In this document: piece after piece, positions 1 to 36,963 of the stretch
How the letters are laid out: each line of letters opens with the position of its first letter
Position numbering within the stretch: position 1 is the first letter of the stretch
DNA from: Psammoneis japonica
Lineage: Eukaryota
Assembly (NCBI GenBank): GCA_008632985.1
Contig: QPGO01000012.1
Coordinates: forward strand, 372,001-436,000
Length of the DNA: 64,000 nt
Reading direction: 5' to 3'
Position numbers and translations under genes: made by a program
Notes under the pieces: model-generated
Told to the model about the DNA's origin: nothing
Seen by the model: the letters and a program-made list of their open reading frames with translations, nothing else
The model's database searches: none

Positions 1-12
1 CCATTTGCCATG

Positions 13-461
13 TGCAACACACAGCTGCCAATGAGAGTCAATGCATCACGGCGACGTGTTGCAGCCTTTAAATGTCACAACGGGCATGACAAAAACAACC
101 TTTTGTCTGCATGCATGCTGCACCATGAATTCACAGCGGAGTGGTTCATCGCAACCATTTGGGCAGGAGGCCAGGGGTTCGAAACCCTGAGTGGGAGTTG
201 TCTGCAGCAACGTTGATCACTGTCGAACGCGCAAAACTCTGTGCAGTTCTGTGTGTTCCTTCGCACGCACCCACACTGTTCCACCAAAACCGTGCAGTGT
301 CAGCGCACGTCAGCAAAGAGCCGCATGGACGCGTGACACATGGGGAGGAGTGCAACACACAGCTGCCAATGAGAGTCAATGCATCACGGCGACGTGTTGC
401 AGCCTTTAAATGTCACAATGGGCGTGACAAAAATGACCTTTTGTCTGCATGCATGCTGCAC
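13..461 (+). repeat. Direct repeat of about 110 bp (13-123 and 350-461)
   Basis: TGCAACACACAGCTGCCAATGAGAGTCAATGCATCACGGCGACGTGTTGCAGCCTTTAAATGTCACAA... occurs twice, 338 bp apart, at the point where the helicase similarity breaks off. Confidence 0.85.
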
Positions 462-3400
462 ATGTTCTCATTGTGCGGGATCATGACTCTGCATCCTTTG
501 CGTGTGCACAAAACTGGGTCAAGCCTTCCAGACTGCACGTCAACATCGCTCTCTCCACAATTCTTCCAGAATGTTTTGCACACAGGGAAAGGTCCATGCT
601 GTCTGGCTCCATCACACACTTGTGAATTGTTGCTGAAAATGGCCAAAGAGTCCAAGACTTCTCCATCTCTTTGGTGCAATTTCCTGGCTCTTTCTTCAAA
701 CAAGGCTGAGTCAACAGAGTCTCTGTCTTTGTTCCTGTGTGTTGCACATTTGATGTTCTCTGGGAGCTCTTGACCATTTTTCACTGCTCTTTTGTTTTTT
801 TTTCCAATGTCTTTGAGTGCCGCCTTGCCATCCCTGAATCGTTTCAGCAACTCACCCCACTCTGGATCATTGCTGAATCTGTGCATCCCATGTGGCTCGA
901 TGCAACAGTTCACCCATTCCTGGAATTTGGCACAGGGTTCTTTGCAAGAGGGTTCATGCCATGTCCCACTGGCTTGAGTTGTCTCAGATCACCTGCAAAC
1001 ACTGCATTCATGCCCCCGCAAGGTCTCCCCAAATTTGATTTTAAAACAGATGGATTAGCGTGCAACTTTTCCAAGTCTCTTTTGCAAGCAGTGACATTTT
1101 GTTGACAATCAACAAATGGGTGTCACTCCAGCTTTCCATTTGTGTTTCTGTCATTTCTTTTTTCCTGTTTGAACAAGCCACTCTGTGAGTGGTGTGCCTC
1201 CTTTTAGAGCAGTTGCTGCTGCTCCAGTCATGGCAGCAACAGCCATTGTGTGCATTGTGAATGGTTGTTTGATTGGAGAGCAATGTTTGCTTGCACGCAA
1301 AACAACAAGATCAATGACAGTCAATTTCCCACTTCATCCTGCTCCATGCAAAAAACAGACATTGATTGTGTGGTCCGTCATGCACGTGCTTCAACCAACT
1401 TCGTCAATCTCCTGTGTTCTTTGTCAAACTCATGCATGCCTGATTCCTCCTCTGGCATTTCCGCTGGCTTGTTCTCCCAGAGCATCTTTGCAGCATGTCA
1501 AAACGAATGTTCCCACAACAACTTCAAATGCACGTCTTTGGTGTGGGTCCAGCTTGGCTTTTCTTGACCAATTGATCATGCTTTTGATGGAGCCATTCAC
1601 TTCATGGACATCAACCATTTCTTCTGAATTGGTTGTGTCTTGGAAGGATTGTCAAATGCGCTGAGTCTTGGCCACATCTGATTGTTGCTGCTTTCGCCAT
1701 TTTCTTTGTCAACCTCATCCTGTGGCGGTTCCATCATTTCCACAACAGGTTCCAAATTGATGACAGTGTCTCCACAAGCAGCAGCAATGTTCATGTGTGC
1801 CAAGTGTTGACATCCTGCAAGATGACTTCCTTTTTGCCTGGTGTGTTTGCCGCTTGAGTGTGACAGGACGGTTGCTTTGTCATTCATGTCTGACCCACCC
1901 TCGTGTTTGCATTCCACCAATTCTTCCAGGAGAGCATCAAGCAGCTGTCCTTGCGGAGCTGTCTTGGTTTCATCTTCACTGTCGTTTGCCCTTGTTTGAT
2001 TGAACTTGTTTTCAGCCGTCTTGTGCTCACGTGTTGTGCATTTGAGGTGATCTGAGGTGTTCTTTGAACAAAGACAATTGGACTTTGCATCTTGCAGATT
2101 CTGTGGGAATTTCAAATTTTGTTCAGCAATGACATCCTCTTCCACCGCCTGACAGAATGATTGCAGGCAGGTTTGATTGAATGGCTGCACATCCGAAATG
2201 GTTTGACATGGTGTGAACAGAGCAAGAGCTGGCTTGCAATTTTTCTTGTGTGGATGGTGCAGCAACGTCCATTGAAGAACTGCCAGATGGCAAGGTCAAC
2301 AGTGCAATCATGATCGAAGGTCTGCATGATGGACAATCGAGTGTGGTCGTTGCTGCGCACCAATGCAGTTGTGCACATCTGTCCAGTTGATGCCGACAGA
2401 GTTCTCACACCATTGCACCTCAAATCTCTGTCACCAGAGTGCAGCCTGTCTCTTGCTGTGTTTGTGTTTTCAAACCATGCCTGCGTGTGGCTGTGTGCTG
2501 ACAGTCTGCCTTGTTCTTCCATTGCAGCTGCAAAGGCAGAGGGTCTTCCCATGTGGAACTCGAAATCCTCTCTTGGTGAATTGCTTTTTAAGTCCCATGA
2601 TCCCATTGTTTCTTCTGTGATGATTTTCAACAACATCTTGAACACAAAAGCTGTGATGCCTGGGTGCTCCACACAAAGTTTGTTTCTTGCCCTGGCCTTT
2701 TCAGACAATTCATCGTCTGACATCAATGTTGCATCTTCGCCCTTGTCGACAAGCAAGTTCACATGAATTTGAGCTGGAAAAGAATTTGCATCATCTGGGC
2801 TTGTCATCAAAAACACTCCAGGTTGCCCAAAGTGATGTTGACAGGTTTCAGCATTTCTTCTCATTTTCTTTGCTGCTTCATTGGTGTGCAGAACAGATGC
2901 TGACATCACATCCAATGCATTCAAGAAATGGTGCCCCAGTCATGATTCCTGCATTCACCAGTTTGTCTGTCATGTGTGGCTTGGTCAACATCATCTGATG
3001 TCAGCTCATTTGAGGGTTGTCTTGCTTGATCCTTGTCTCTTGCTTTCCATCCAGCACTTTGCACCATTTGTTGCTTCACTGTCAGATTGCACAGGGTCAA
3101 CACAAAAAGTTGTTTGTGGAGGTGGGGCTGAGAAATGCAAGCCAAATGATCCATGCAATGTGCTAAATTTGTGAGGTCGGCGAGACTGCTGTCTTCTTTC
3201 ATTCTGGTTTCATTGACACCACCACATCCATGAGGGCATTGCAGCAAGCATGCGTCAACAAGGTTGCCATCCTTGAAGTCACCAGCAAATTCTTTCATGA
3301 GGTCGGCCTTGAATTTGATGTCAAAACGCTTGCAGCTGCACTGTGCACCAAGTCTTTAAAGCTGTCTAAATTGCACTGGCCTCCTGTTGTTGAAGAGACT

Positions 3401-4517
3401 GCTCCATTGAGGAAACAGACGCTGTGTGACTCTGATGTTTCAATGTTTGCATTTTCACTTTCTTCTAGACTGCTGTCACTCACTGGGATTGGATTTTGCA
3501 AATTTCCAACCTCCTCTAGATCAATGTCTTGACACATCCAATCCTTGTGGTGGCAGACAAGCCACTCCAATGCTTGCATTGCATGGTGCATCCTGATTTT
3601 GTTCTTTTGTCTGGCCATTCTCCTTTGCTCTGGTGTCATTTTTCCAGGTGTTGGTGCAACGATGTTCTGGCGAAGGTTTAGAGCGTCAAAGTGCATGATG
3701 GTGCAAGCGATGCTCTTGATTTTTATCTTGTGATGGGCAAGGCCACCTTGCAGTTTCTTCTGTTTGCCACTGACAACATCAAAGCAGCAGCCATGTGTTT
3801 TCACGGGTGTCAACAGAGCCAGCTCCACTTTGGCAAGGCACAACAATTCAGGTGGTGGTGCTCCGAAACAGCAGTTGTTTGCTGTCACACATGCAGGCAT
3901 GGAATCAATGTGGAGACTTCTTTTGCAAGGTTTGCAACATGTGAATCCTTGGACCTTCTGTTGTCATCCGGCACAATGCATCGGGCTCTTGGCAAAAGTG
4001 ACAAGTTTGAAATCCATGGGCAGTCTCACGGAATGCCATCATCATTGAATCAACAACAATCATGAAGGTCTTCCAACACTTGGCTCCATTCTGATGGAGT
4101 CAGTGGGTGCCTGGCTTGATTCAGTCTGTTGATGGAAAGCCGAGTCACAGAGGATGGTTTTAACAGTCTGTCACACACCAAACAAACCCAAGGGATGCAC
4201 TCATTCCCATTCCTGCAATGGAGCTTTTCGAAGTGTCTGTTTGTCACGTCTTGGTGCCTGGAATTGACATGCTGACATTGCAAGACGTTCTTCAATGCAT
4301 TCAGGATTGCAGCACTGGCATTGTCGCACCCGCAGGTGTCGATGTTTGTCCCTTGGCTGTGGTGCTGAATGAACTGGATTTGAAGTCTCTTTGGCAAAGA
4401 TTGCAAATTTTGGCATAATTTCCTGCCACATGCTCCATGCGTGCAACTTCGTGCCCTCAGTGCCACACATTGAAATGGATTTGAAGTCTCCTCGGCAAAG
4501 ATTCTAAATTTTGGCAT
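440..4517 (-). mobile_element. Helitron RepHel (HUH Rep + PIF1 helicase) pseudogene, fragmented, probably with an internal deletion
   Basis: Minus-strand motifs in the expected order: VCLVCDRLL; PACVTANNCCFGAPPPELLCLAKVE (DUF6570-like); CPHGCGG (FPYGxGG-like); FGQPGVFLMTSPDD (Rep motif 1); EEQGRLSAHSH (HUH motif 2); ALALFTPC; AMTGAAATALKGG (PIF1 Ia); LLIVNKMS (DExS); CGGMNAVFAGDLRQLKPVG (PIF1 III); GMHRFSNDPEWGELLKRFRDG; GCRVMI..N. Rep motif 3 (YxxKY) not found; a jump occurs near 2290. Confidence 0.9.
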
Positions 4518-4560
4518 AATTTCCTGCCATGTGCTGCATGCGCACAGCTTTGCACCCTTG
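4372..4560 (+). repeat. Tandem duplication, about 101-bp period, at the 5' end of RepHel
   Basis: TGGATTTGAAGTCTC...GGCAAAGATT...AAATTTTGGCATAATTTCCTGCCA occurs twice. Confidence 0.85.
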
Positions 4561-4816
4561 GCACAGGACGTTCTTCGTGGGGATCATTTTCCTGCATGGG
4601 ATTGCAGTGTCTTTTTACGTGTTTTCAGTGATGTGTTTTGCCGTTGCCAATTTGATGGTGCTTGTCCGCGATCTGCATTTTGTGCCTTTCCTCATCTGCT
4701 CACAATTTCTGCTGGGATGGGGAAAGACAGTCCAAGTGAGTCATCCCCTTCATTTCACTTTTCTGCTTGTGTGCCATTCTTGCTCAACTGGTCTTTTATT
4801 TTTCCACAAGCATGGC

Positions 4817-6315
4817 ATGGCATGCAGAGCCAGGGGCTCCTCCAAGAAATCGGACAAGCAGGCTGCCAAGAAGCCGCAGTCACCTGTCAAGTTTTCTGCT
4901 TCTCTCATGAAGAAGATTGCTCCCACTGAGTCTAACGGTTTGTCTGATGAGGATCTGAAGGCGGAAGATCTTCTTGCAAAAGCAGGAATCAGGGTTGCCA
5001 AACCCACCGGAGCACTGCTGGATGTGACAGCAGCACCAAGGGCGCCAATTTCTGCATTTCCAAGATGTTCAACGGCAACAAACAGGGTCTTGTTTTCCAT
5101 TTGGAACCCAGGGGTTTGGTCAGCCCCTCTGGTGTGTGGGCCAAGATGGTCCTTTTTGATGCCATGCATGCCAACAAGGCTTGGGTTGTCAGTTTGGGGT
5201 TGTTCCTCACACCAAACAGTGGCACCACAACAACAAACCCATGAAGAATGGAAGGAACTGTTCCATCCGACTCTTTGTCATCTGCATCAAGGGACGTGTT
5301 CCAGTCCCGGTGACGCACAAAACGACAATCGGATTTTGAGTGTAATTTGTGTGTGTTTTAGTGTGTGCAGCATTTTAACAAAAATGCTCAGACGGATTGA
5401 CTGTTGCAGGCTTCTAGAGTGTGAACATTTAAACAGTTTTTTGAGGGGTGTTCAAATCATCATGGGACATGCATCACAAACTTCCTCAGTGGACTCAACA
5501 CTGATTGTACGTCAGTGGATTTATGCTGAGATTTTTTCGCAGGTGGAAAACCTGCCAAGCAGCATTGTAGAAAGATGTGTTTGGGTGACATCCAAACAAC
5601 GGCAATGTTTTCGCCGAAAATCATCCGTTGTGTTACGAATCTTTTAACGCAATGAAAAACATAGATGGCACAATGACAATGACATTGCAACACTCACACG
5701 AGTCTTGTCAGTGTTGCAAAACATTTGTGTTTGCACAAATCTGTGCTTTTGGTGGTGAAAGTTCGATCGTAAGTCAGGGACCGCGCAAAAATCGCGCAAA
5801 TGTCGTTTTTGTGCACGATTTGGTTCACGTGCGGCTGGAACACGTCAAGGAGCCCCCCTCTGATGAAAACATCAAAAGGCTTTGCAACTGCTTCGATGCT
5901 AAGCTCAACAACAAGCCCGACAACAACACTGCCACTCATGTCAAAGACGACTGCGTCTGGATCAAGGATGGTGTTTGGGCAGATGTCATCAGAAACGATG
6001 CGGCTTGAATGAGCTTTGTAAAGAGGGTGGCGACTTTCACTTGGGATGGTGCAAGCAGCACAAGAACTTGCTGCACAGCTGCCTTCATGCTGGCACATTG
6101 CCAATGGATTCTGCCGTGTGATTGGAGCCCCAGTTGAAGAGGTGGCTGAAGACAATGATGCCCATGTGGGGGACCAGGACAAGGAGCAGGATGAGCAGTT
6201 GTCCGACGGTGACAATGGCGATGACTTGCTTCTTTGTGATTCAGATGACAAGCAAGTGTGCTTCTGTGTGGAGAAGTTGGCAGTGTTTGAGATGTGGTGC
6301 TGTGCTTGGTCCTGA
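4817..6315 (+). pseudogene. Hypothetical gene, interrupted by a MITE and hypermutated
   Basis: Protein-like segments MACRARGSSKKSDKQAAKK... and RLFVICI|KEPPSDENIKRL... rejoin in frame when the MITE and one TSD are removed. Acidic C-terminal part. Confidence 0.55.
5293..5846. mobile_element. MITE copy A (554 bp), 12-bp TIR GACGTGTTCCAG, 4-bp TSD AAGG
   Basis: AAGG|GACGTGTTCCAG ... CTGGAACACGTC|AAGG. Homologous, in inverted orientation, to the copies at 48080-49211. Confidence 0.92.
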
Positions 6316-6800
6316 AACAGTGCAAATGTTTAGTTGAATTTACCCCGCATGAGTGAGAGTTGCCAATTCCACACCACGGACTTCCACACCAAATCTGCAC
6401 TGCATCTGTCATCCATCAGGTTCTTGAATTTTCCTGACCCCTCCTCCCCACCCCAAACTCCCCACAGCCAGACGCTTGGTCAGTGCATTGTGTGCTCAGA
6501 TTTGTGAGGTCCTGAAGATTGCAAACGATGTTGTCATTGCCTGGCATTTTCAGAATTGCATGAAAGCACAAATTGCATCATGCATGTGAGATGCACCCGT
6601 GCTTGTGTGCCACAACACAGTGTTGTCAAGCCCATCATTAGAAAAATTTTCTAAATTTTGGAAAATGTTTCCACCATGTTGTTCAGTGCTGCCACCGGCA
6701 CTGCATGTGCTCTGCCAACTAGAGTGAGAGAGCAGCAGAGAGCAGCATGTTGACAAACACTTTCTTGGAATTTTTTCCTAATTTTAGAACACATTCCCAA

Positions 6801-8130
6801 TCATGAGAACAGCCAATGGCAACTGTGCCACTTCTTCCGGAGACTCTTTGTAGCAGGTTTCTTGGCAGGCTTGAGCACCCTCTTCTGTTTCCTCTGGCTT
6901 GCTGCAACGATCTTGGCAGGCTTGGGCCAACCCTTCCATTTCTTCTGACTCTGCACAACCAACTTGGAATCAGCATCCTCATCTTCTTGATGCTTGCACA
7001 GAAGTTCTTCACCAGGACAGATGCGCTTCTTTGCAACAAGTGCACCATCGTCATTGAACTGACAATTGTCAGCATTGGCTTCTGTCTTGGTCATCTCACT
7101 GGGCTCTTCAAATGATTCCTCCACATCATTCACACAATGCATGCCCATGTGCAGTGACTCAGTGTTCTCGGCATCATCCAGCTCCGTGGGTTTTGGAGCT
7201 GCCATCACACAGTGCCCTGAAGGTTCGCGCAGGGTCATGTGACAGACACTGTGATCAACACCACAACAATCATCGTGGTTGCAATGGGTGTGAGGAGTTG
7301 GGGGTTCCTGGACACTTCCGTTCCAACGCACACCCCAATGACCTCTTGTTTCTGGAAAAAGGATGCAGCGAACATGCCAAGTCTGGCACCCTTCCTTTGA
7401 GAAAGACCGATTTCGAAGTGATCCCTCCAGGGATTCTGGTTGTGAACAGTTAGAAAAACATTGATGAGTGGAATGTCATGGTGAACATGCACTCACCTGC
7501 TGTTTGATGCACATCTGAAGTTGGGGCCTCCGCTGTTTGTCAAACACCTCCCAAAGATTTCCAAATGTTGGACATTTTGGCAAAACTCCAGCGGGTGCAG
7601 ACCAGCACCAACGGCGCGGCTTGCCTTCGGATTTTTCTACAAATTTTAAATTGCTGCACTTCAATCCAATCTGTCTGATGCTGTTGCACCACACACCTTT
7701 GCCAATGATGGGATTGGGATGGTTTTGTGATTTGCCACTCATGAAGTTGATGAGTGCATTTGCGTCGACTTGGTGAGACTGCCATTCTGCCATGCCCTCA
7801 GGCAAAGCCTCCACCTTGCCCCCCTCCTCTGACTTCTCCTCAGCCTCCACCTTGCCCTCCTCCACTGGCTCCTCCTCTGCTGCCGTGTCAGTTGCAGTGG
7901 ATGTCTCGTTTGGCAGCAGTTTAAACTTCGGATCCACAAAAAATGTGGTGCCATCAATGTTTGTGGATTCGCAATGGCACTCACTTGCTGTGTCCACTCC
8001 TCCGCACATTTCAAACTGGTCATGATGAACACATGGAGGGAGAGGAAAATTGTGGGTGGCACAGGCACATCTCCTGCTTTGTTTGTTGTGGCAGACATCG
8101 GCGCTGCCTCTGAGGTTGTGCTTGTCTCCG
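6801..8130 (-). pseudogene. SET-domain-like protein remnant with an intron
   Basis: FEIGLSQRKGARLGMFAASFFQKQEVIGVCVG resembles the SET N-terminal GxGLFA...IgxYxG; ESLHMGMHCVND resembles lyMGxHyxND. Minus-strand intron signals GTGAGT (about 7496) and CTAAC...CAG (about 7455-7435). Frameshifted. Confidence 0.55.
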
Positions 8131-9879
8131 TCTGCAAATCAAGGTGTGCAAGTGTTTTGACAATGGTGTGTTTGGCACCATCCTCCACCACCATGTTGGT
8201 TTTAGGAGTCAATGAAGCAACCCCCTTCATTGTGATGAGAGAACAATTGCAGTCAACAATGCCTGGTGCTGCAGTTGAGAAAGCAGCTGACAGATGATGC
8301 TGTGTAGAGCAGAGAACCGCAAAGCACAACGGAAAGGCGTGTGTTGCAAACACGAGCACACAGTTGAGTGCACCTGCTTGCAGCCACATGCATCGCATGA
8401 CAACAACAATGACCGGGACATGCAGTTGCTGATGTCACAAGTTCCAGTCATGAAAACCATGGCTGGATGTGAGGAACTGCTGGACAGCCAATGTGTTGCA
8501 TCATCGGAGAAAATGAACAGCAGAACACCAAATTCCTTGTGCATGAAAAGGGGGGCAAGACACTGAGGGTTTGTTCTGATGTCAGTGTTTGAGAGAGAGA
8601 GGTGATCATTGAAACACATTCCACCAAATTGTCCAACAGTTTTTTTCCCACAAAATGGAGGTGATCACAGCTTGGGCAGCAATTTCAATGACATGCTCAT
8701 GCCTTTTTTTCAACACTGCTGCCCTTTGCTCTTCCAAAACTCCAAAGAGAGAAAAAGCCATTGACTTGGAGATCCCAAACCATGAATGCCGCAGCCAATG
8801 GAGTGAGCTGCAAGACCCTGATGGAGCAACTCCATGCCCCATGAATGACGCCATTCCATTGCAACTCGGCAATTTCAATTTTCAAATGAGCGCATGTGTG
8901 ATTGTCATTTTTGTTGTCCAACCAACTGCGTGCTTTGACTGTGTCATCACAGTCTGATCTGCAAAACAATGCAGATGGCCTTTGGTGAGAGACATGGAAG
9001 TGGACACATTCAGTTCATGCAGCAGCCTCAAAACAATGGTTGCCAAAAGAGAATCCTCTCACAATCATTCTTCACATGCTGCTCTTGGTTCATTGTTGAC
9101 ACTGCTGTGATCAATGCAACAACAATGTGCCGCCAATTCATGTTGCAGTGCCAACAATGATGAATGTGTGATGCAAGATGTGTGAGGAGGAGTGCAGCAG
9201 TCTTGAGCATTGTTGTCTTCTGCGTTGTGCAAAGCCTGCATCCTGCATGTGAAAACTGCAGAAAGATCACCACGCAGACTCTGGTGCAAACTCCATTTTC
9301 GCGAGGTTGTCGCACAAAAATGGGTCAGTGCACAGGGGAAAAATCCGTGACCTCCCCCCCCCAATCTGAGTTGCCCAAAGCACAACTTTTGACCACACGT
9401 TTGCGCAGAACACAGAATTGCAAAAAGTTGAAAAACCACACAAACATGCAGGATTCTGCGCAAATCTGGCTGGCACAAAACGAATGCAAAGCTGCCCTCT
9501 TCCATCAGAGTGCATGAAATGTTAAAAATGTGTAGATTCACATGATGACAATTCATTAAAACATTGCAAAACATTGTTGTCACATGATGACAGGCCAACC
9601 TCTGGTCACAAGTTTGGTGTGCCAACATTGCAACAACTTGTTGAGAATCATGCATGCTGTTTTTCACTGTGTCCACATCGCCATTTCTGCCTCCACCTTG
9701 TTGCCATGTGCCAATGCGCGATTGCATTGCCACACAAACCTTGGTTTGTCAATTTTCGCAAACATTGTTTTAAACGAGAAAAACATTTCATCGGCTGAGT
9801 CAATTCCTTGTTGCATCTGCAGTGCAATGACCGAGTGCCATGTTGGCTGTGCACACATTTTTTTGCTGCAACTCTCTTA

Positions 9880-11131
9880 AACTGAGCTGACAATCATCAT
9901 CGGACTCATCTTCATTGGACTCGTCTTCATCGGATTCGTCTCCTCCGTTGTTCGTTTTTCCTTTTGTGATTTCCTCCTGCTCGTCGTCATTGCCATTGTC
10001 GTCCCTGCTGCTCTCCACCATTGGGCTGTTCATTGCCTTCACCTTCTCCGCATCATTGGTCGGTGCTGTCTTCTTCTTCTTTTTTGCTTCTCCGGACTTC
10101 TTGCACTCGCCTTTCTTGATCTCCGCACGCCACTTTTCAAACTCCTTGCCCTCCTTGGAGTCTCTGTCTTTCATCACCTCTGTGCACAAATCGTTGAACC
10201 GAATGATTCCGTTGTCTCCCCAAGACTCTCATTGTTTCTTTGGCTTCATGTGCTGAGGGGCAGGCCTTGTTTCTTTGGGCTCCATTTCCTCACCCAATTC
10301 TTCCACCGCCTCCTCCTTGTTCCTGTGTGCCCACACCTGCCAACAATTCTCCACAGCTGATGGCGCCAAAGCTTTGTCACATGCCGCAAACAACTGTGAG
10401 ACCTGTGCATTCCCAGTTTTGACGGTGTGACTCCATGCCTGCTTTTGCTTGGTTTGAGGCAGGATGTGATCACAGAACCACTTGTGTGCCTGCTTGTTCC
10501 TTCGTTTGCCGCCGGCAACAGTGTCCAGGCTGGACGGATCCCATGTCGGCACAAACGGGATGTCATTCTCTTCATTCTTGTCATGGCTTGACTTTTTCCT
10601 GTTTTGCTTTTTCCTCCTGACTGCCGCCTTGTGTTTCTTTTCTTTTTCCTTTCCCTCTTCCTTGGTGACAATGCCCACATGGACAAAGCATCACCGTCAT
10701 CTTCTTGTGAGATGTGCACAACTCTTGAATCACACACATTGGTCACTTGGCTTGCGGGCCATTGTCTCCGCCCCAACAGCCAAACACACCGTGTTTCTGC
10801 GATTGTCAACCTGCCTTTTTACCGCCTTTTTTGCCCATTCCTCCCAAGTTCCTGACCAATTTGAAGTGTCCATGTTGCCACCAGCAATCTGTTTCTTGAC
10901 AAACATTGAGATGCTCCCATTGCTTGCCAATTCTGATGGGCTGAGAAACTTCACCTGTGGAAAGAGATCATTTCTGGCCACCTTCTCCACTTCAGATTTC
11001 AGTGCACCATGCGCTGCCTGCGTGCCTGTTCTCTTCAACACTGCCTGAAGTCTCGGGCTCATTGGCCCAACAGTCTCATTTTTCTTTCTCTTCTTTGCCG
11101 GTGGTGCTGGAGACGACATCTTGATCTTCAC
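9880..11131 (-). pseudogene. Transposon-associated hypothetical protein remnant
   Basis: Coherent charged protein segments: LFPQVKFLSPSEL, KWFCDHILP, CDKALAPSAVENCWQVW (DEAxxxxxxEN-W-like), and an acidic tail. Broken by frameshifts or introns. Confidence 0.5.
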
Positions 11132-11825
11132 ATGGCAACAATGAGAGCAGTGTCACTGTTCGACAGTGCAACCGTCGTCTGGGTCGTGTTGAGACAGCTC
11201 CATGACATTGCACAAATCATTGTCGGCAACGTTGAAATTTGAAAATGTGTTTGCACATGACAATGAACAGTCCAACTTGCTTTTTGACATGGCTGTCATT
11301 GCGTTCCAACGGAGACAATGTTCTTTGTTTTGACAGCAAATAAAAAAGAACAACATTCGTTGTAAATGCCAGATGAAAAATCAAAATGCAGACACGTCAC
11401 ACCTGTGTGAATCATCCAAATCTGGAAGACAATGTAATGTTTGCCATTTTCCCGCCATTTTTCGCGCGTTGTTCTTCTTTTCCCTTCTCATCCACAAGAC
11501 AAGGATGACGAGCATGAGTCTTGATGAAGGCCCTGTCAACATTGACCAGAGAACTGTGAGGCAACGGCGTCAGCATGCAGACTTGGTCAGTCGCTGGCAG
11601 CTTGATCACAAACAAAACAACTGGCTTTCAACACCTGAGAAGACTCAGTTCTCACCCAAGTCACGGGTTGTCCCTGTCAAAGCAATTGGGGACAATGTTT
11701 TGGTTTATGAACAATGTCCAGGAGCAGCAGAAGCACAAGAAAAGGCCCTGTTTGTTTGGGCCACACAGGACAGAAGGAAGTGTTGGTCAGATTTGTTTCT
11801 AAAATGGGGCACGCGTCTGGATCTG

Positions 11826-14800
11826 TCATTCACTCACAGTGATTGCCCAACTCTTTCTTGCAAACATGATGAATTTGATCCTTTCAGAATCAGCAAAGTC
11901 ATTGCAGCACATGCGAAGCAGTGCGGCACGAGCACCTTCCATTGCTTTTGTTCTGATGTCTTCTTCGGAAACTCCAAGACAAGCTTCTTCCTGATCAGAG
12001 GGCTTTCCCAACCACCGTTCTCGTTGTTCTTGGGTTGTGAGGTTGCTTGCAAAGAATGTGCTCGCACAGCTCTTTGCAGCATCCTTGTCCATTGTGCATG
12101 TGTCGAACACAGCCAACAATTTCTTCCATTGTTTGACAACCTGGAAGAAGGTTGCAAGAGCAAAGGGAATCACTGTGCCCCCCCCCCTTCTTCGTTTTTG
12201 GAGAGCAAGGCCCGAAGATCAATCAGATTTTGGAAAAATTGAGTCGTCCCAAAATGACTGTCGCACCACTCTCCATCTGGCATCCAGCAGCAGTCCAACA
12301 TGATTTGGTCAAACCCATGATTGTCGAAATCAACAAGTTTCTCAAACTGCTGCTTGACTCTCTTGACGAAATCTCTTGCTTTCACATTGCAATTTAAGTG
12401 CAGATCAGGATGTCCGTCTTGGAGAGAAACTGTCATTACGACGTTTGCAATTGTTTTGTTAGATTCCTCAAATGCCATTGTGCGGGCCTCGTCTCGCCTG
12501 TGTTGGTCGGACAACACTGAGGCCACCCCCTTCTCAGAGCACAATTCTTGAGAAGATAGTTGCCTTGCATTGAGCGGACGGGTCATCCCCAACCACAGCA
12601 CATTGTGTGTTTCCCCGTTGGTTTCGTCACTTGCGAAACAATCTCCTGAGTCGCCATGGTCCTCTTCACCCTCGGAGCAATGTGCAACTTGGTTGTGCTC
12701 ATCGTCAACAGGCTCTTCGCTTTTGTCCTCTTCACCCATGCAAGCAGTGGGAAGTTTGCTTGTTTTCTCGTCAATTGACTCCTCCTCGCAATCGTCACTT
12801 TTGTTCATTGCGAATGACAACAAATCACCGGCGGCCTTCTTCCTGTTAGAACGAGAAATCAATGTGACAATGTCAGCACAATCAGACAAAAAACAAATGT
12901 GATTGCCGTGAAAAAGCAACCTCTCTTCACCGTTCCAGTTCAGCTTGAACTTCATCAATCGTCACGAGTGGGACTGGCTCCCACTCACACCTTCCAAACC
13001 GCTTGATCATTGATTGCCCATCAGAGAACAAGAGCAACAGATGCTGTCCACAACAAAAGACATCGCAGATTCCCATCTTTTCACGAGCTGCACTCAGGTC
13101 ACATGGCAAAGACTCTGGACCATTCTTTCCACAGTCTTCCAAATCAAAATCACCCTCCATCCGTTCCAAGAGTAAATCGCGCTCCTCCACCGGGACCTTC
13201 ATTTCCTCCATTTGCTTCGCCGCTCCCAACTTGGCCACCGGATAGACAAGATTACGAAGGTCAGGGTGAGGATGGATCCCTGTGCCACACAGCATCAACA
13301 TCTGCACAGAGTTCATGCATCTGAACTCTCCACAATCAGCACCTGTGTGATCCCATGTTTGGACCACGGTTTGAAACATGTCCTCGATCGCCTTGTGGTC
13401 AAATGTTGGCTTGCCAACATTGTCATTGATCCAGTTGATGAGAACAACCAGTCCGCCAACAAGCAAATCCATCAAACCGTTGAGTTTCGTCCCGCACTCT
13501 GCCACATGAACCTCCTCGAAATCGAGTCCCGGGCTCTGCATGCGTTGGTTGTTGCGATCCCCCGCAATGCTGTCGAACAGCCTCGTGGCTTCTCTGAAGT
13601 GATGAAGAGCACAATCGCCAGCCAGGAAAGGACGCTTCACAGCATCTGTGTTGCACAACAAGCAGCAAAAATGGGAGAATCCGGTTTGACACCCAGCCAC
13701 AACGGCGTGACGAAAGCAATCATGTGCACCAACCTCATCGAGGTTGTCAATGATTGCGGAACAACTGCACGATAAATTAAAGTCCTTCACGATGGCAGTC
13801 AGAAGATGTTTCCTCTGCATGACAATGACGGGGTGCTCAACTGTGTCGGATGGAAGATTTGGCTTGCCAATTTCCTCTTCCACCCACACAGAGTGAGGGT
13901 CAAGGAAAAAACATTTGATGTTTCTGTGGGTAGCTTGCCCGACGGAGGACGACAAGGGCCACGGCATCTCATCATTTCTGCAGCACATGACAGATCAAGT
14001 TTTGCAAAATGACCATGCACACGCGATTGGAACTCGGCATGCCCATGTGCTGAACTGACACAGTTTCCAGCATTGCCTTTGGATGCAGTGATGACCTTCA
14101 ACGACCAAGAGCGACCAACAGCGTCTCGCAGTGACAAGCAAAGAGCACCAGTCTTGGTGCACCCATCCATGTCACAATCCTCTTTGTCAATGTGCAGCTC
14201 GGTGTCCGAATTGACGGATTTTTTGCCAGACGACGAGATGCACTTAACTTGAATTTCCATGCCTTCCCTTCTAACATGCTTGGCTCCAACCATCTTGCGG
14301 AGCTCAGCCGTGAAAAGACTGTCACGGTGCGGGTCATGGAAGGAACGCATTTCTTTCAATGCAACAAGATTAATTTCGTCCTCGCAGAGTTGCACGGTGT
14401 CCAAGATTGAGGCCATCATTTCCTGCACATCCTTTGGAAGCTTCTCCCACTTGTCCCTGCCAAAGACAGCACCAGGCTTGTGAGCAGGTCCCACTTCAGC
14501 TAACTCACCGTCCGCGACTTCGTAATTCTGGCCACAACAACCAAAACAGATCCAACAGCGCAACTTGCATTCTGGTCCATCCCTTTTTTTGTTCGGCTCG
14601 CCATGTTCCAACACTGCACGGAGTGTCGACAACACACTGAATCGCAACCCAAAAAAGCATTTCTGATGCATCTTGTCCGTGTGTCGCAAACAAGTGACCG
14701 CGCCGGAAAAATGAGAGGTTGACTGGGTCGGGCAAGCAATCGCAACCATCGATTCTTGCGTCGGATCATTGGGAGCCATGCCGTTTTCAAATCCATGCAC

Positions 14801-16610
14801 AAACTTGCGGAGGTGATTCACCAAGTGGAAATCAGAGATGCTGTGGAATGACTGGTGCTTGACACAGTCCCCCTTGAAGGAACCGGAAATGGGGGTTTCC
14901 TCAAAGACGACAAGGTGAGAATGTTGTGACTTCACCTCACCCGGAATCGTAAACGGAGATGGTTCAGGAAACACTTTCACAAGCTCTTCTTTTGTGAAAT
15001 TGTCTGGCAGAGGAGGAGGCGACTGACAAGTTGCACTGAGGGTTGGCCACTTTGTTCGGGAACATTCAAATTGTTCCTTGAGAGTCGGCACATCTTGGAG
15101 AATCAGCGATTTGTTCTGAGAAACATCAGAAGGTTCACCATCTTTGGGGTTTTTGAGACTGGGGCTTGAGGAGCAAAGGGAGGCGGCTAAAGAGGTGGCA
15201 AGAAGAACAGAAGAATCAGAGACAAGAAGAGGAGCACAAACAATCAATCAAACAATGTGATGGATTCACACCATTTGGATTTTTTCGTTTCCGAGCATTT
15301 TTCGTAACGGATGGAATTGCATTGCCGATTTCTTTCTTCTTGTGCTGAGTGGCAAAGTCACGAAGCCTGGCTTTCCACACAGCCTCAAAACGATCCCTTG
15401 CAGCCTTGCTTTTGCCGGAATCGTCAGCGGCAGAAACCACACGATCAATTTTCACACATCTTAAAAGAGTCTCATCGACATGTGTTGCACGCATTTGTTC
15501 TTGCTCGACATTGAGCATTGCCAGTCGCACAGGCTGTCCCCAAGAATGTTTGTGTTGGTGGAACAACAACTTTACGAGTTCAGGGAAGGACATGGGGCAC
15601 TCGTCTTTGGTCGTCTCATGGTGACCAAGAGCCAGGAAATCCTCCAAAAAGTTGATGTAAGTTGATGTCTTGTCACATTCGCCAAACAGGGAGCACAGCC
15701 AACAATCGCAATCACCATTCCTTTCAGGTGCATGCGGCAGAATTTTGTCACGAAGAATCAAAAAACCAATGTGAAGGCATTGCGCACAACGCAAAACCTT
15801 CCCTTCAAAACTTTTCAGCTCAATGTGCTTGACAAGTGGCTCTCCCTTTGGGTCGCACAATCCGGGATCATGGAGAAGCTTGCACAACATGGAAATCTTT
15901 GCCATCATGTTGGTTGCAATGTCTGTTGATTTTGCCTTGTTGCCAACGACTTTCACATCCTCTGCTTTGGGAGCACGGCAATGCTCCAATGCATGAGGAT
16001 GTTTGGCGCCTTGACTGGAACAACTCCATCCTTTTGCAGAAAGAAAGTGCAGCGAGCTCTTGCACCCAAGTTCCTTTGCAACAATGCGGTTCACAGCCAT
16101 CAGTTCCACAAAAAAATGAGGTCTGCCCTTCGACTTTTGCCACACACAGGCAAGCGCGATCCAATTCGGAGAGGGATCACAAGTGGAATTGCGGTGAAAC
16201 TGAACCTTGGATTTCACCGTCTTGATTGTCGCTTTGACACGGCTCCGCTCGTTGCCATTGATCACTCCAAAACCGTTGGCAAAGAGAGATTCAAATGCGG
16301 CCTCCTCGAGGTGGGAATCATTGTTGTCTTGCGACAGAGAGGCAACCAACAGGTCACGCGGCACCATGGTTGCTGTTCCAACACCAAACAATCTGGTTTC
16401 TGCAGAAATGTGCCAGAGTGGTGTGTGGGAGAAGTTGCATGTGCGCCTGGTGCAATTTGGAGTTTTAAACACAAAAACCTGCCAGACGCGCATGTGACTT
16501 CTCCCAGGGAAATCCCACGTGAGATCATGCCGGGAAAGGGCAGTGCGGAGTGCAGAATTGATGGAAGAAAACATTGTGCGGAACAGCATCAGGAGAAAGG
16601 GTGCATGCAC
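11826..16610 (-). pseudogene. Large hypermutated hypothetical gene or gene cluster (about 1500 codons in overlapping ORFs)
   Basis: Chain of ORFs 15216-16610, 13799-15247, 12927-13988, 12170-12958 and 11826-12173 with protein-like composition but almost no Tyr. Weak HxD (about 14190) and Rossmann-like (12280-12610) motifs. Confidence 0.65.
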
Positions 16611-16792
16611 TGGAAAACAACATGGATTTCTACATGCACGTTAAGGTGCATGAAAAACATGTGGGTGCCTTCAAGTGATGCGCGCAAACCATCATAAAGA
16701 AACATCCGGAAATGGAGATGGCACAGAGAGAAGTCAGAAACATGGATCCAAAACAAAGTGACACAACAGAAAAAACAACAACAACAACAAGA

Positions 16793-17195
16793 GATGAAGG
16801 CGATGGCAACGGGATCAATGAAAAAGAAGGATTCGGATGGAAAGACGCCGGAGACGGTGAAAACAGGCGGCGCCAAGACGAGGAAGGAAGAGAAAAATGG
16901 GATGGGCAAAATGAAGAAAGACAAAAAGAAGCCGACGACACGACGTCAAGAGGGGAGCAGCAATGCCATTCAGCGTTTCAAGGGACCTCTTCCTCTTGAT
17001 GATGTTCACCCAAATGCAAGAAATGCAGTGTGGCTTTTTTGGAACGGTGACAAGGAAACATCCAACGAGGCAGCGGCACATTTGAAATTCTTGCAAGAGA
17101 GCGGACAAGACATGTGGAATGAAGAGGACGATGCGGACGACTGGGCAAATTGGAGCACAGTTGTTGATCAAACAATTGGTGCACACTTTGCATGA
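16793..17195 (+). pseudogene. Small hypothetical protein remnant (Lys-rich N-terminus, acidic C-terminus)
   Basis: ORF MKAMATGSMKKKDSDGK...WANWSTVVDQTIGAHFA, divergent from the large minus-strand gene, with no Tyr. Confidence 0.4.
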
Positions 17196-18809
17196 TGAAA
17201 ATTTCATTGCATGCAATTGCAATGTTTGGCTTGTCGTTAAAGATCGTTGGTTGTTGTGAAAAAGGCAGAGCACAAAATTTAAAAAACATCTGTGTTCAAA
17301 CATGAAGAACAGCAGGAGATTGATGATTGGCCAAATGACAAAAACCGTCATGTGTGGACAAGCAGATTTTATGGTGTGGCAACACATTTTTGTCATGTGT
17401 GCAGATGTTACGATGTTGTGCACTCTGATGTCCACACCATGGCAAAGCAAGGGGGCAATCACAAAAAAAAGTGCCTGCAGCTTTGATCACTGTTGTTGCT
17501 GTTGGTGTTGTCATTCAACTGCACTCGTCACCGTGACATCGCAAACCTCTGAGTCATCCACCGGCACCAAGATTGAGCTGTTGCAAATCATCAAACCACA
17601 TCATCATCTGCATTGCAACATCCTCAAGGTTGAAAGGTGACTGTGAGGTGACAGGCTTGAGGGCTGAGGATGAAATGCCGGTGTGCTCCAACTGCTTCCT
17701 CTGCCGGCACTTTGGCATGTGCTCTGGTGAGTGTGGTGCACATTTTCCAATCGTTGCCACACACTTCAATTCCAACGTTTTACTTCTGCCACCATTTCTG
17801 CCATTTGGGCTTGTCATCCACCATCCACACCACACACAAAGCTGTGGAGCAGCAGATGTTGAGTGTTGAGCATTGCCAAGGCTGGCATCAATGTTGTCAT
17901 GATGTTGAATTCATGAGCATTCAACCCTCTGTTTGGACGCTGTGTCAAGTCCAAGTCTTTGTCAGAAAATGTTGATTTCCCAAACTCTTTGTTGAGTTGA
18001 TTTGATCTTCTGTTTTTACTTTTGGACATTGACGCCATGGATTGAGACATGGTGGGGCAAGGGGAGAGGCATGTGACTTTGTTTTGTGCATCAAAATGAA
18101 GGTCTTGAGCAGTCTGAGTAAAAGAAGAACACAAAAAAAGACACACAACACAAAAAAGTGACTGGACCCTGTCATCATGCTTTTGAGGGAGTGCTTCTGT
18201 TGCTGGGGCCCGAAAGCAGCAAGCCATGGTTCCCTCCAAGGTGGCCCCATGCAGCACATTGTAGAAGCCTGTGTTTCACAATGCTTTGTCATTGTCATGC
18301 TGCCACGAATGATCATTTTGTTGACTTGACTTGCTGATTGTGCCCTGCTGACTCAACTTTGAGGAACAAGGAACAAGCCTTTTTGGTTTGCTGCAGCTTT
18401 TCTTCTGTCGTGGCAGTGTGGAATGACATGTCACAATGCCCTGCCACCACACAATGCAAGAGAGTTTGCTGTGTTTGGTTGCAAAGGTTGCAATGCAATG
18501 ATGGACCTCAGTGCCGTCCTGACTTGACAAAGGAAAAATGTGCCAGACTTGTGTGGAATTCTGTGTGTTTTGTTGTTTTTTGACTTTGTGATTTTGGCGG
18601 GAGGCTTCTGCAAAAGTTGTGCTTTCTGGCAGTTGTTTTTTGAGGGGGTGTTTTGTGCAATTTTTTCCATGGATGACGAAAATGACTGCAACTGCACAGC
18701 ACCAACAAAGCAGTGAGCAGTGGCGCACGAGCATGCACGAATGAGGCTTTTGGCTTTTGAGCAATCATCCAGCCAGAGCAGGCCGGTGGCTCTCCACAAA
18801 ACAAGTGGG

Positions 18810-18950
18810 ATTCATGCTGGAACTTCCGTGGGATTTGATGAGGACGCAATTCCATTTTGACAAGGACAAGCAGAAAGCAACGGTCCATTTTGGTGCAAAT
18901 TTGACAAGGACGCCTGAAGAGGAATCCTCTGGATTCCCCTCCATTCAATG
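18810..18950 (+). repeat. Dispersed repeat, also present at about 55345-55480
   Basis: CAATTCC(A/G)TTTTGACAAGGACAAG...GTCCATTTTGGTGCAAATTTGACAAG...GAGGAATCCTCT is shared between the two sites. Confidence 0.85.
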
Positions 18951-19035
18951 AACAACAAGTGCTGCAATGAGAAAAACAACACACCATGAGGCTCAACCGA
19001 TGCTCAATTTTGCCACCGAACCTTTTCCTGCCAAA

Positions 19036-19568
19036 AGTGAGGGCTGAGGCCAGTGAACGGCTCAAGGAAGTGGTCAGTCCCACCTGCTCATGACTCAGCA
19101 CTTTCCCACAGTGAAAATTGCACAGGAATCTGACGATGACTGAAACGGTCAGATGACTTCCAACAACAACAATTTTTGCTGCATGCAATGCACATTCCTT
19201 GTTCTTCAATGCACAAACCAACCACTTGATGCGTCACATGCAGTCATTTCCCTGAGCTTTGCCAAAATGATGCTGAGCACTGCATTGCGTGTGTGCAAAG
19301 CTGTGCAGTGCTCTGCACAATTCGTCTTTTGTTCGGATGACTTCCAATTTGTCAAAACAACTGCATGCAATGCCCAAAATGGTTGATTCAAGTGTTGACA
19401 AACAAAGAATGCAAGTTGCGTGCAGTTGATGTTGTTGTTGGCAGAAGTCATCTGACCGTTTTTGTCATTGTCGGATTCCTGCACCATTTTCACTGCAGGG
19501 AAGCACTGAGTCACGAGTGGGCAGGACTGACCACTTCACATTTACGCGCGCTTGCCTCAGTCCTCACT
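19036..19568. mobile_element. Foldback / MITE-like element with imperfect inverted arms of about 210 bp
   Basis: AGTGAGGGCTGAGGC...GAAGTGGTCAGTCC...AAACGGTCAGATGACTTC (19036-19245) is the reverse complement of about 19350-19568. No TSD recognised. Confidence 0.8.
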
Positions 19569-20337
19569 GATGCATGACATGCCATGTTTTTCCTCTGACA
19601 AGTGCATCAATGAAAAGAGATGTGAGAGAAACCCAAAAATGGATGAAAAATCCTTCCTTTGGTTTTTGCTGCCATTCTCACTTGATTCTCACAAATTGCA
19701 CAGCAACAACTGAAACTCTGTTTTGCCGCCAAACCTTTCCCACCAAAAACACACAAGGCATTTGAGCAGAGAGAAAGGCAGTGTGGGAGCAGGTGGCACT
19801 GTCTTTGATGGGGCTGTTGTTGAAATTGTGGTGTTGTCTGAACAAGTGCAAGCTTGTCCAGTTGCCTTTGTTGCTTTCCGCAATGCAGCAGCATTGGCAG
19901 TGCAGTCTGCAGATTTGCCAGCACCATTTGTGTCCGGTCTTCTTGAAATGGTTGCTTTTGATGCAATTGTTGGCTCATCAAGGCAGGTGGCATTGCAGCA
20001 GCAAGGCAGTTGGCATGGGAGTTGGTGCTTCTGGAGCAGCCAGCTGGCACAGGACATGTGTGGCATCGGAGCAGCTGTGTGTGGTGGGGGACCAATTCGA
20101 AAATTCAGGATCAATTGCAGTGACAAAAAGAGGAGGAAAAGGGGATCAAAAATGTGATGATCACAGGGCTGCTGTGCACTTGTCATTGCTGACTTCTCCA
20201 CCACCAATTCGCAAAGATGGGCTGCAGCTCAAAGGGTCATGGAGAATTCCAATCATGGAAAGGACAAAAATGTAGAGCTCATTGTGCTTCAACCTTGGTT
20301 TCACCACAAACAAGGCGTGCACATGACAACAATGCAT

Positions 20338-20680
20338 GGATTTTCTTTTGCACAACAAGTTTGGACAACATTTGTGCATTTGATTTGTTTGGCTCACACA
20401 TGTGTTTGCAGTGAGTGCGATCAATCTTGCACTCATCCTTGTTGTTGGACGTGTTGGAGCCGCTTTTGCATTGTTTGTGCATGATGCCTGGGCTTGGAAC
20501 TCAACAACATGCCGGGATTTTCTTTTGCACAACAAGTTTGGACAATGTTTGTGCATTTGATTTGTTTGGTTCACATGCATTTACATTGAGCTTGATCAAT
20601 CTTGTGCTCATCCTTGTTGTTGGATGCACAGGGACCGCTCATTTGCATTGTTTGCATGCGATGGCTCTGCTTGGCATGCA
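20338..20680 (+). repeat. Tandem duplication, period about 177 bp
   Basis: GGATTTTCTTTTGCACAACAAGTTTGGACAA...GATCAATCTTG..CTCATCCTTGTTGTTGGA occurs twice. Confidence 0.85.
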
Positions 20681-23600: not shown

Positions 23601-23804
23601 TTGGCACACACATGTGAGGGTGTGGACCTTGCGCCATGAAGCTGGCAATGCCACTCACTCTGCAGCATTGTTTTGTTGGTGGTTTGAGCAATGTTTGCTC
23701 CACTGAGGTGCCTTGACCTCCAGATGAGAAGGGTTGCTCACCAGCAGCACCGCATCATTTTTTTTAGGATCATTTTGCCACTGCTGCTTTGTTGATTGAT
23801 TGAT

Positions 23805-23832
23805 TGAGAGAGAGAGAGAGAGAGAGAGAGAG
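23805..23832. repeat. (GA)n microsatellite
   Basis: Perfect GA run preceded by (GATT)n. Confidence 0.9.
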
Positions 23833-24369
23833 GTGCTGATTTGTTTGTTCATTCGTTCATTCAAGAGAGAGCCAGTGGAACAAAACCTGCTCAAATTTCA
23901 CTGGAACATGACCAGCTGTTCCACCCACAATGAATGATGGCTTGCTGACTTCCAACAATCTGTGGTGCAAAAATAGAGAGATCAGGCATGAGCTGCTCTC
24001 ATGTCCAGATTTTGCTCCCTCAAACCTCCAGCCCCAGAAAATCCCATGCCAAAGCAATCAACAGCTCTTGAGCCATCATGCAAGAAGATCCACTGCAACT
24101 GCCCCCATGGCCCACAGTTGCAGCTGCCACCAGCTGCCACTTTTTCCCAGTTTGCAGTTCCATCACTGCTTGTGACACCAACAAAACACCAGAACATCCT
24201 GAAGCTGACACTTCAGAGGGGGGGTGCCACAACCACTGTGCCAGTCAAACTGGCATTGGGGACAGAGACAGCATTTACAAAGATCATGCTGCATGAAGCC
24301 TTGCACATTGTGAGCCGGGCAAATGAACAAAACTTGTTGCTCTGCCATTTTGCATGGGAAGCGGTGCTG

Positions 24370-27862: not shown

Positions 27863-28221
27863 ACGGAAAGAAGATGGCTGATTTGAGTAGGGAATTACCA
27901 GGTGTTTGATTTTAATTTTTGCGGGGTTTCTGTTCACCTTCACTCCCACTCGAAGCAACACCGGCAGCTGCTTTCTCCTTTCCGACCACATGCCTCAGCA
28001 ATGCGATGAGAATGCAACCCAATTGTATAAAGAGCTCAAGATCAAGACAGAAGCTTTAACAATAGATTTTTTATTATATTCATTGCCCCCGCAAACTGAT
28101 CATTATTAAACTTTAATCGACGCCCAAAACAAATACCAGAAGTAGCCAAATTTCCGGGACTCGGTGCAACTTAAGTACACCCAGGACACGACATGCGAAC
28201 GTTCAAACCCCGTATGAGTAC

Positions 28222-36799: not shown

Positions 36800-36963
36800 G
36801 TGGCCGTTGTGTTCTTCGTCATGGCCGTGACGACCAGTTGCGGCCACGAGTTGGCGACGGTTTGCTCCCGCGCTTTTCTCGCGTGGATCGCGCGCTTCTA
36901 CCTTTTGTTTACGGTAGGCCCTACATACAGTACGGTACAGTAGGGCCCGCTCTACGTGTCTGA

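Follow-up and report, generated by a model that had tools for sequence, protein, structure and literature searches.

Our analysis supports TA as the ancestral state of a family of non-coding DNA transposons in the genome of the diatom Psammoneis japonica, and the loss of these TAs in place after insertion, which leaves TpG or CpA. One member of this MITE family, copy A, lies in the window, i.e. the whole stretch of 64,000 nucleotides analyzed here (Table 1). At the family TA sites of 90 near-full copies we counted 2,159 TA, 1,169 TG, 1,233 CA, 40 CG and 330 other states; TG or CA was thus found at 2,402 TA sites and CG at 40 of 4,931.

Table 1. Features of the window (positions are those of the whole stretch; o/e, observed over expected)
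Feature	Position	Strand	Remarks
MITE copy A	5293..5846	+	554 bp, non-coding, 78% TA-eroded
Copy A, left 12-bp terminal inverted repeat	5293..5304	+	sequence; ends common to copies
Copy A, right 12-bp terminal inverted repeat	5835..5846	-	sequence; ends match between copies
Copy A, target-site duplication AAGG (4 bp), left	5289..5292	+	
Copy A, target-site duplication AAGG (4 bp), right	5847..5850	+	
Imperfect palindrome inside copy A	5685..5719	.	self-match; present too in longer parent element
Copy C, full-length older copy	48249..48833	-	29-bp internal duplication
Copy B, 5' part of older copy	48873..49211	-	
Copy D, 3' fragment, tandem with copy C	48079..48249	-	0 TA retained
TA-poor transposon-derived domain with copy A	1..24900	.	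TA o/e 0.01-0.18 per kb
Helitron-like remnant within TA-poor domain	2112-2939	minus	
Gene island, ordinary TA content (internal control)	25300..36900	.	TA o/e 0.28-0.72

The element is a MITE: it is short (555 bp) and non-coding, has 12-bp terminal inverted repeats and a 4-bp target-site duplication of free sequence (perfect in 80 of the 90 full-length copies), and occurs in many dispersed copies. Its majority sequence contains 55 TpA and 25 CpG. A first look at the 91-Mb genome yielded 320 candidates; searching the genome for exact end sequences gave 54 matches for a TA-free 27-mer (5' end) and 116 for a 16-mer (3' end). Fifty-five full-length copies were analyzed first and 35 more, found mostly via the other end, were added later; near-full copies were picked either for their similarity to copy A or through exact CpG-containing end patterns, and the sample is incomplete and leans to young copies. 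One divergent copy (L043; 70 of 392 other differences) was left out of the tree and the spectra, and L040_72 was removed as a duplicate from later analyses, the L040 pair sharing 90% of states, which looks like a local duplication. Two intermediate copies were omitted from contrasts between intact and eroded copies, and partial copies from most counts, with three of them included in the replication tallies. No two copies shared both unique flanks, and thus no insertion was seen in two allelic forms differing in TA state. A second subfamily differs at 38 of 402 neutral sites, has 43 of 47 scored TAs in common with the first, and likewise comprises intact and eroded members. Some copies carry other elements nested within them (L034, L067, L071): an insert of 338 bp in an intact MITE contains 21 TAs, whereas inserts of 450-470 bp in eroded hosts contain about 4. 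The TA counts of the inserts thus parallel those of the host copies, which indicates that host and insert share their state.

That TA is lost after insertion, as a preliminary description of this DNA had proposed, is confirmed by the family tree, the states at individual sites and the intact target-site duplications. In a tree of 54 copies built on non-TA, non-CG columns, intact and eroded copies are interleaved; one clade with support 100 unites two intact and seven eroded copies, and copies with 80-100% of their TAs belong to both subfamilies and to a third well-supported clade adjoining eroded copies. Forcing the 23 intact copies into one clade (against 31 remaining rows) was 74 log-likelihood units worse (AU p 0.002, quick tree). 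Across 29 eroded copies, all but one of the 55 sites (54) occur in both the TG and the CA state; agreement on TG versus CA between pairs of eroded copies was 56%. Only 12 double hits (TA>CG) were observed, compared with 243 expected if both strands mutated regardless of context; the first hit therefore abolishes the target on the opposite strand. Descent from a form that had TG, CA or CG at these sites cannot account for the observed pattern, which excludes the scenario that the preliminary description had named as its refutation, a RIP-like origin of the TAs in copy A.

The reverse direction, with TG/CA or CpG as the ancestral state and TA produced by RIP-like or methyl-cytosine C>T changes in either copy A or a master copy, can at any rate draw on precedent, as RIP is described as making TpA from CpA/TpG in fungal repeats (PMC2621366), and CpG decay does occur in the MITE copies. 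It is at odds with the intact copies, which do not form one clade and which share most TAs across separate subfamilies, and with the two outcomes per site and the scarcity of CG; moreover, intact copies have preserved 98% of the 25 real CpG sites, and C>T at CpA amounts to 0.65% (12/1,855) in eroded copies. We consider it practically refuted. An equally negligible probability attaches to a sequencing or assembly artefact. There is a single assembly, and the sole short-read run covering this stretch may derive from the same sample; short-read contigs nevertheless differ from the TA-poor unique flanks at only 5 positions in 9.4 kb (8 longest pieces), extend to both ends of copy A and, at 5667 and 5675, contain TA alleles that belong to other copies. 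An empty-site allele of copy A did not turn up among these contigs, which carries no weight with data of this type. In addition, the one assembly holds both intact and eroded copies, and the context rule described below is stable across separate sets of copies.

The preliminary description listed TAs at 5508, 5522, 5568, 5634, 5662 and 5770 in copy A and called this copy less mutated. All six are present, and the list is incomplete, with further TAs at 5343, 5359, 5376, 5415, 5430 and 5645 making 12 in total. At the 55 family TA sites copy A thus has 12 TA, 26 TG and 17 CA, and it has kept 24 of 25 CpGs. It is less mutated relative to copies B and C only and is not near-ancestral, since 43 of the 55 family TAs are gone; copy A is itself 78% eroded, and the state before erosion is found in other genomic copies. 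At non-TA, non-CG sites it differs from the family majority at 4 of 394 positions, and some of the copies closest to it at neutral sites, 4 differences away, retain 96-100% of their TAs. Copy C retains one TA, at the site corresponding to 5430 of copy A, besides 16 TG and 26 CA, and has lost 10 of 25 CpGs, with 59 of 394 other differences; copy B has one TA, 19 TG and 12 CA, with 52 of 253 other differences. Copies B and C belong to older lineages, which at non-TA, non-CG sites differ from the main consensus by about 21% and 15%, respectively, and because copy A is eroded as well, comparing it with B and C alone polarizes the changes only weakly.

The alignments on which the preliminary description had built were largely reproduced. 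GTAC at 5508 corresponds to GCAC in copy C and GTGC in copy B, TTAT at 5522 to TTGC and TTGT in copies C and B, TTAC at 5634 to TTGC in both, ATAG at 5662 to ACAG in copy C (CTAT>CTGT on the minus strand), and GTAA at 5770 to ACAA and GCAA in the 48-49 kb copies. GTAG at 5568 reads GTGG in copy C as claimed, but copy B still has TA there. Among the additional pairs drawn upon, those at 37029 (GTTATC versus GTTGTC) and 54870 (CATAGA versus CATGGA) hold; TCTAC versus TCTGC at 54954 and 54966 is seen, but in a weakly aligned extension, and for 54903 there is no reliable alignment. The tally of eight TAY to two RTAR changes derived from these sites had the right sign and overstated the strength: in 57 eroded copies we counted 657 hits on the TAY strand and 424 on the TAR strand.

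The changes are highly specific for TpA. By 5' base, A>G in eroded copies occurs at 1,214 of 3,176 adenines after T (38%), compared with 2.0% after A, 1.2% after C and 0.5% after G, i.e. about 19 times more frequently at TA than at AA; C>T amounts to 5.7% at CpG and to less than 1% elsewhere. In a competing-risk fit, the 3' base modulates the rate relative to A by factors of 3.8 (T), 2.6 (C) and 1.2 (G), and in the context model an A preceding the TA is 2-3 times better than other bases. The preferred context is therefore A-T-[A]-Y, with the 5' T strictly needed. The hazard per target A is about 0.78, compared with 0.0045 private non-A>G changes per base, which corresponds to an about 170-fold excess over background; this is a lower bound and a relative rate only. 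At four family positions (217, 277, 343, 479), TAs touching a CpG were hit below the context model by factors of 0.13-0.43; TAs adjoining CpG look partly protected at these four sites, which could reflect methylated C.

The same rule is evident beyond the MITE. Over the whole window TA reaches 0.20 of expectation and TG/CA 1.58; TA o/e per kb is 0.01-0.2 at 1-25, 37-45, 48-51 and 55-64 kb, whereas the gene islands have about 0.3-0.7. About 45 of the 64 kb are affected. The 189 TAs that survive in the 45 kb of TA-poor DNA comprise 1% RTAY and 53% YTAR, compared with 29% and 16% for the 619 TAs in genes; this depletion of RTAY shows that the context rule is valid outside the MITE too. Genes in the window are spared, differing from repeat-derived DNA both in TA o/e and in the contexts of the surviving TAs. 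The gene island used as a control carries Sin3 and NifU-like genes, the former with named relatives in the diatoms Fragilariopsis and Odontella. Two old copies of a longer repeat (37003-39284 versus 47718-48075 plus 49627-51334) are 71-79% identical, and the MITE cluster at 48079-49211 is nested in the second of them. A further TA-poor segment (9.3-17.3 kb; 39 TAs in 7.8 kb) has a summed contig depth of about 3,000-15,000, compared with about 63 in unique DNA, and short-read contigs contain a joint linking 17204 back to 9592; this segment is perhaps a high-copy element with copies at least 95% alike that was amplified after TA loss.

Hits on neighbouring adenines are coupled by strand at very short distance. 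Where both TAs of a TATA were hit, the hits fell on the same strand in 123 of 186 cases (0.66), compared with 0.49 by permutation (reached in 0 of 3,000 permutations) and 0.46 +/- 0.03 in simulations of independent, context-dependent hits. The excess was seen again in separate copies (73/111) and in the second subfamily measured against its own consensus (37/61; these copies overlap other sets). Likewise, the upstream A of AATA was changed in 27 of 196 cases when TA had become TG and in 3 of 143 when it had become CA, and native AATG, which served as a control, showed the upstream change in 3 of 140; in separate copies AATA>AGTG was found in 23 of 121 (TG) versus 7 of 108 (CA; p 0.006). There was no strand coupling at distances of 3-500 nt, and the ratio of TG to CA was homogeneous among copies (p 0.93). 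In lightly hit copies, with only 23 private hits and correspondingly little power, 6 of 9 pairs were on the same strand (p 0.36). A long-range strand bias in erosion, which we also considered, was rejected, the same-strand excess being confined to 2 nt. We infer many small events over many divisions, each of which sometimes touches two adenines 2 nt apart.

Retention of TA is bimodal. From 0 to 1 in bins of 0.1, the numbers of copies are 15, 26, 6, 4, 4, 1, 1, 0, 7 and 25 (89 copies), and both subfamilies have the same two peaks. The preliminary description had called the loss progressive, which is correct with respect to loss in place and not in the sense of a steady clock: private transversions per copy average 1.09 in intact and 1.23 in deeply eroded copies (p 0.28; Spearman 0.19, p 0.07), and 20 of 57 eroded copies have none. 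TA retention, which it had suggested plotting against neutral divergence, is not tied to the latter. At neutral sites the median distance to the nearest relative is 12 in eroded versus 5 in intact copies (secondary A>G included), which indicates that some eroded copies are older. Among the 33 intact copies there is no identical pair (minimum 3, median 11 differences), and assembly and reads differ less (about 0.05%, 5 in 9.4 kb) than intact copies do through private changes (0.35%). These data are best matched by a lag and subsequent fast erosion rather than by a steady clock. It is possible that the apparent lag instead reflects a recent burst of transposition through a relay of young copies.

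The latter idea leads to an alternative that concerns the timing only, namely that there is no switch: erosion would proceed at a constant fast rate from insertion, and the intact copies would be very recent descendants of a relay of young sources. At rates like those of Bigelowiella natans (see below) erosion would be expected to finish before neutral changes accrue; some TG/CA states are common to intact copies, one site in 15 of 33 for example, which indicates that sources were occasionally hit and yet still moved. The greater distance of eroded copies from their nearest relative points the same way, and a second, 720-bp family looks graded, with 8-32 TAs in 7 copies. Steady insertion, however, predicts a ratio of part-eroded to intact copies of about 9:1, compared with the observed 12 versus 31, and neither the absence of identical pairs among the intact copies nor the like peaks of the two subfamilies would be expected. 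We therefore regard the constant rate as unlikely, though as the alternative to be taken most seriously, and prefer a lag before erosion.

Decay of CpG accompanies the erosion and lags behind it. In total, 281 of 2,211 CpG sites had turned into TG or CA, and losses rise with the erosion class from 1.6% (intact) through 4.4% (intermediate) and 18% to 25% (most eroded). CpG as the source of TG/CA at the eroded sites was rejected: the source sites are TA in intact copies, and the CpG sites are largely kept. With respect to the surroundings of the copies, flanks of eroded copies were richer in CpG in the first set (median 3.75 versus 1.6 per 100 bp in intact copies; 28 versus 23 copies, p 0.0005). 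This effect was not replicated in 35 further copies (intact 2.4 versus eroded 3.15; 9 versus 26 copies, p 0.24, one-sided), and the pooled p of 0.002 is driven by the first set. Such an effect would have linked the erosion to methylation. Intact and eroded copies were alike in the TA content of their flanks (p 0.2-0.6).

Two longer elements have the ends of the MITE and are apparent parents. The first (L160:113-6718) is 6.6 kb long with the target-site duplication CCAT, the second extends from L161:5879 to L098:3501 on C2 with TTGG; both contain assembly gaps, which break a long ORF in each. Identity between the two is about 95%. Their ORFs contain tandem repeats of about 170 bp, and the elements differ as TG versus CA at 58 sites, which indicates that each was eroded independently. 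The ORF family has 35 matches in the genome and 120 database relatives, including Fragilariopsis proteins; it gave no Pfam match and is presumably a transposase. One TA-rich relative, L165, has an open frame of 1,229 aa. Tyrosine was counted 30 times in 766 aa of a TA-rich transposase relative and 0 times in 587 aa of an eroded one. TA loss thus fits an inactivation of transposases, and defence as its selected function would be a further inference. A 720-bp inverted-repeat element (L150-L156), one copy of which is nested in a parent transposon, shows both TG and CA at 24 of its 43 TA sites. The Sola superfamily is characterized by a DDD transposase core and a 4-bp target-site duplication. Short terminal inverted repeats, a 4-bp duplication of free sequence and parents of 6.6 kb and more with the same ends are shared here, and the MITE and its parents are possibly of Sola type, to judge by apparently Sola-like motifs in the parent ORF. 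Sola transposases lacking Pfam matches have been reported (PMC5751038).

Which process could bring about these changes? The A>G outcome, the shortness of the editing window and the order of 5' bases (T, A, C, G) lead us to rank adenine deamination in DNA first, carried out by a candidate host deaminase recruited to silenced transposon chromatin; we give this explanation about an even chance. The mobile form of the non-autonomous transposon is TA-rich, and erosion follows insertion. A host process, in this view, then turns TpA into TpG on one or the other strand (a hit on the minus strand appears as CpA on the plus strand), at more than 100 times the rate of background substitution and about 11 times that of CpG decay, until only resistant contexts such as TTAA and CTAG remain. 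Chemically, A might be converted enzymatically to inosine in DNA and read as G, the putative actor being a host tRNA-type adenosine deaminase (ADAT2/3- or ADAT1/ADAR-like) that would be recruited to silenced transposon chromatin. A single binding event would sometimes edit a pair of adenines separated by 2 nt; the fine mixture of TG and CA states would build up over many cell divisions, and a copy might stay untouched until marked and then erode quickly. A likely role would be genome defence, as tyrosine codons are removed from transposases.

Candidate enzymes are present in the genome. A profile search (PF14437/PF00383) found an ADAT2-like gene, a TadA-like gene, dCMP deaminases, a deaminase-dioxygenase fusion and, for PF00383, the additional loci L146 and L147, and there are two stand-alone adenosine-deaminase (PF02137) genes, one of which was searched and has orthologues across diatoms. 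Every eukaryote would be expected to have an ADAT2-like gene. The deaminases detected belong to housekeeping types and none is diagnostic; in the deaminase exons that were read, no DNA-binding or chromatin domain was seen. The fusion (L078:316-1791, minus strand), which joins a deaminase domain to a 2-oxoglutarate/Fe(II) dioxygenase, probably belongs to nucleotide metabolism. Two dCMP deaminase genes on two contigs (L076 and L077) have identical scores, which suggests that the assembly includes some redundant haplotype contigs.

An A>G change on one strand is a T>C change on the other, and thymine-side chemistry therefore fits the same data. The T in TpA of silenced DNA might be modified, e.g. 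oxidised, and mispair with G, giving T>C in R-[T]-A-T; by the symmetry of the sequence this is indistinguishable from A>G, and the coupling at 2 nt can equally be written TATT>CACT. Modified thymines mark transposons in other protists. The order of 5' bases (T>>A>C>G), however, parallels that of adenosine deaminases, although its magnitude differs; a Tet/JBP search gave no match in the genome and likewise none in the controls, which makes it uninformative. We assign thymine chemistry a small probability.

A comparably small one is assigned to error-prone repair or a translesion polymerase (polymerase-eta-like, WA>WG) that resynthesises short patches in methylated repeats and misinserts opposite T. 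Mutagenesis by polymerase eta at WA hits both TA and AA strongly and produces transversions. The weak A>G at AA (5.6% at AAT), which is confined to eroded copies, and the short same-strand coupling, which would suit a repair patch, are in line with such a process. What speaks against it is the large excess of TA over AA and the near-constancy of transversions: at non-TA sites they are equal in intact (13/5,091) and eroded copies (17/6,420), and at TA sites the increase, counting subfamily variants, is only from 1.3% to 2.1%. Most AAT changes are, moreover, tied to a neighbouring TG hit, and the coupling stops at 2 nt.

Lower still we place a two-step route, in which the adenine of TpA in repeats would be N6-methylated or otherwise marked by a dedicated enzyme and then deaminated or misread, the marking enzyme providing the specificity. 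Such a route would account for the strict dinucleotide rule and for the lag, and the genome has many DNA methylase genes (27 PF00145 matches), some in TA-poor DNA. However, PF00145 methylases are C5-cytosine types, and the 6mA known from eukaryotes is found mainly at ApT and in genes. C5 DNA methylase genes at three loci (L085-L087; C301, C297) lie in TA-poor DNA (o/e 0.07-0.10), some of them broken, and are apparently carried by a repeat; five others lie in ordinary DNA. Adenine deamination remains our preferred explanation.

RIP, APOBEC and methyl-CpG decay are mutational defences against mobile DNA that act by C>T changes, and A>G at TpA across the transposons of a genome takes the opposite course. 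The MITE family provides a clean before-and-after series which fixes the direction, the context and the order relative to CpG decay, and its intact, TA-rich copies are testable substrates. An enzyme behind the process, if there is one, would be a natural editor of DNA adenine. Going one step further, diatoms, and perhaps SAR algae broadly, might possess a dedicated, switchable defence that deaminates DNA adenine at TpA in marked transposon copies, with a very short processive window and no need for homologous pairing, and that strips tyrosine codons; we put this forward tentatively, at somewhat worse than even chances. If true, it would be an adenine-side counterpart of RIP and APOBEC, and its enzyme a natural editor of adenine in double-stranded DNA. 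In practical terms, repeat ages, consensus sequences and transposase annotation are distorted in such genomes: copy A is 91% identical to its family, yet has only about 1% differences at neutral sites.

RIP of ascomycete fungi resembles the process seen here in the mutational inactivation of repeats after insertion, in dinucleotide-specific transitions and in the sparing of genes, but its polarity is opposite: RIP creates TpA by C>T, whereas here TA is lost. Furthermore, RIP leaves long tracts mutated on one strand, in contrast to the same-strand excess at 2 nt only. In addition, the 33 near-identical MITE copies, each with dozens of 97-99% identical partners, are unmutated, and homology is therefore not a sufficient trigger. 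Methylation of the DNMT5 type has been described for diatom transposons (PMC9998398), and the resulting CpG decay has the same TG/CA products and is also seen in the MITE copies, where it is slower and later than TA erosion. Adenosine deaminases of the ADAR/ADAT type share the A>G outcome and the order of 5' bases (U/T, A, C, G); for human ADAR1 a 5' preference of U=A>C>G is given (PMC11120146). They act on RNA, whereas the target here is a DNA transposon without an RNA stage that is changed on both strands, and the preference for 5' T over A (about 19-fold) and the 3' order (T>C>G=A) set the process apart.

The closest parallel is Bigelowiella natans, for which Mettrop et al. describe TpA>TpG/CpA hypermutation of integrated NCLDV and virophage DNA (bioRxiv 10.64898/2026.01.13.699255). 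According to the main text of that preprint, mutation accumulation yielded about 230 new mutations in two viral inserts, with hypermutation in 11 of 15 lines, a rate about 1,000 times that of the background and about 7e-7 changes per A:T site per generation; its authors propose ADAT2, as yet unproven, and suggest an extension to transposons (10.64898/2026.01.13.699255). Both systems share A:T>G:C changes confined to TpA, with TpG or CpA depending on the strand, in mobile or foreign DNA and far above background. The on/off behaviour between B. natans lines may have a counterpart in the bimodality between copies here, which could also reflect a recent burst. The main text does not describe a flanking-base rule, the coupling at 2 nt or bimodality at the level of copies (10.64898/2026.01.13.699255), and in the literature we searched, which covers few subscription journals, there was no report of TpA hypermutation of diatom DNA. 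B. natans is a rhizarian alga in which viral inserts are affected and TpA is, by the preprint's account, mildly depleted (rho 0.45), whereas here it is a diatom in which a DNA-transposon family has been eroded to near saturation. The process in P. japonica is thus the diatom, DNA-transposon and near-saturation form of a kind that, as far as these sources go, has been described once, in B. natans.
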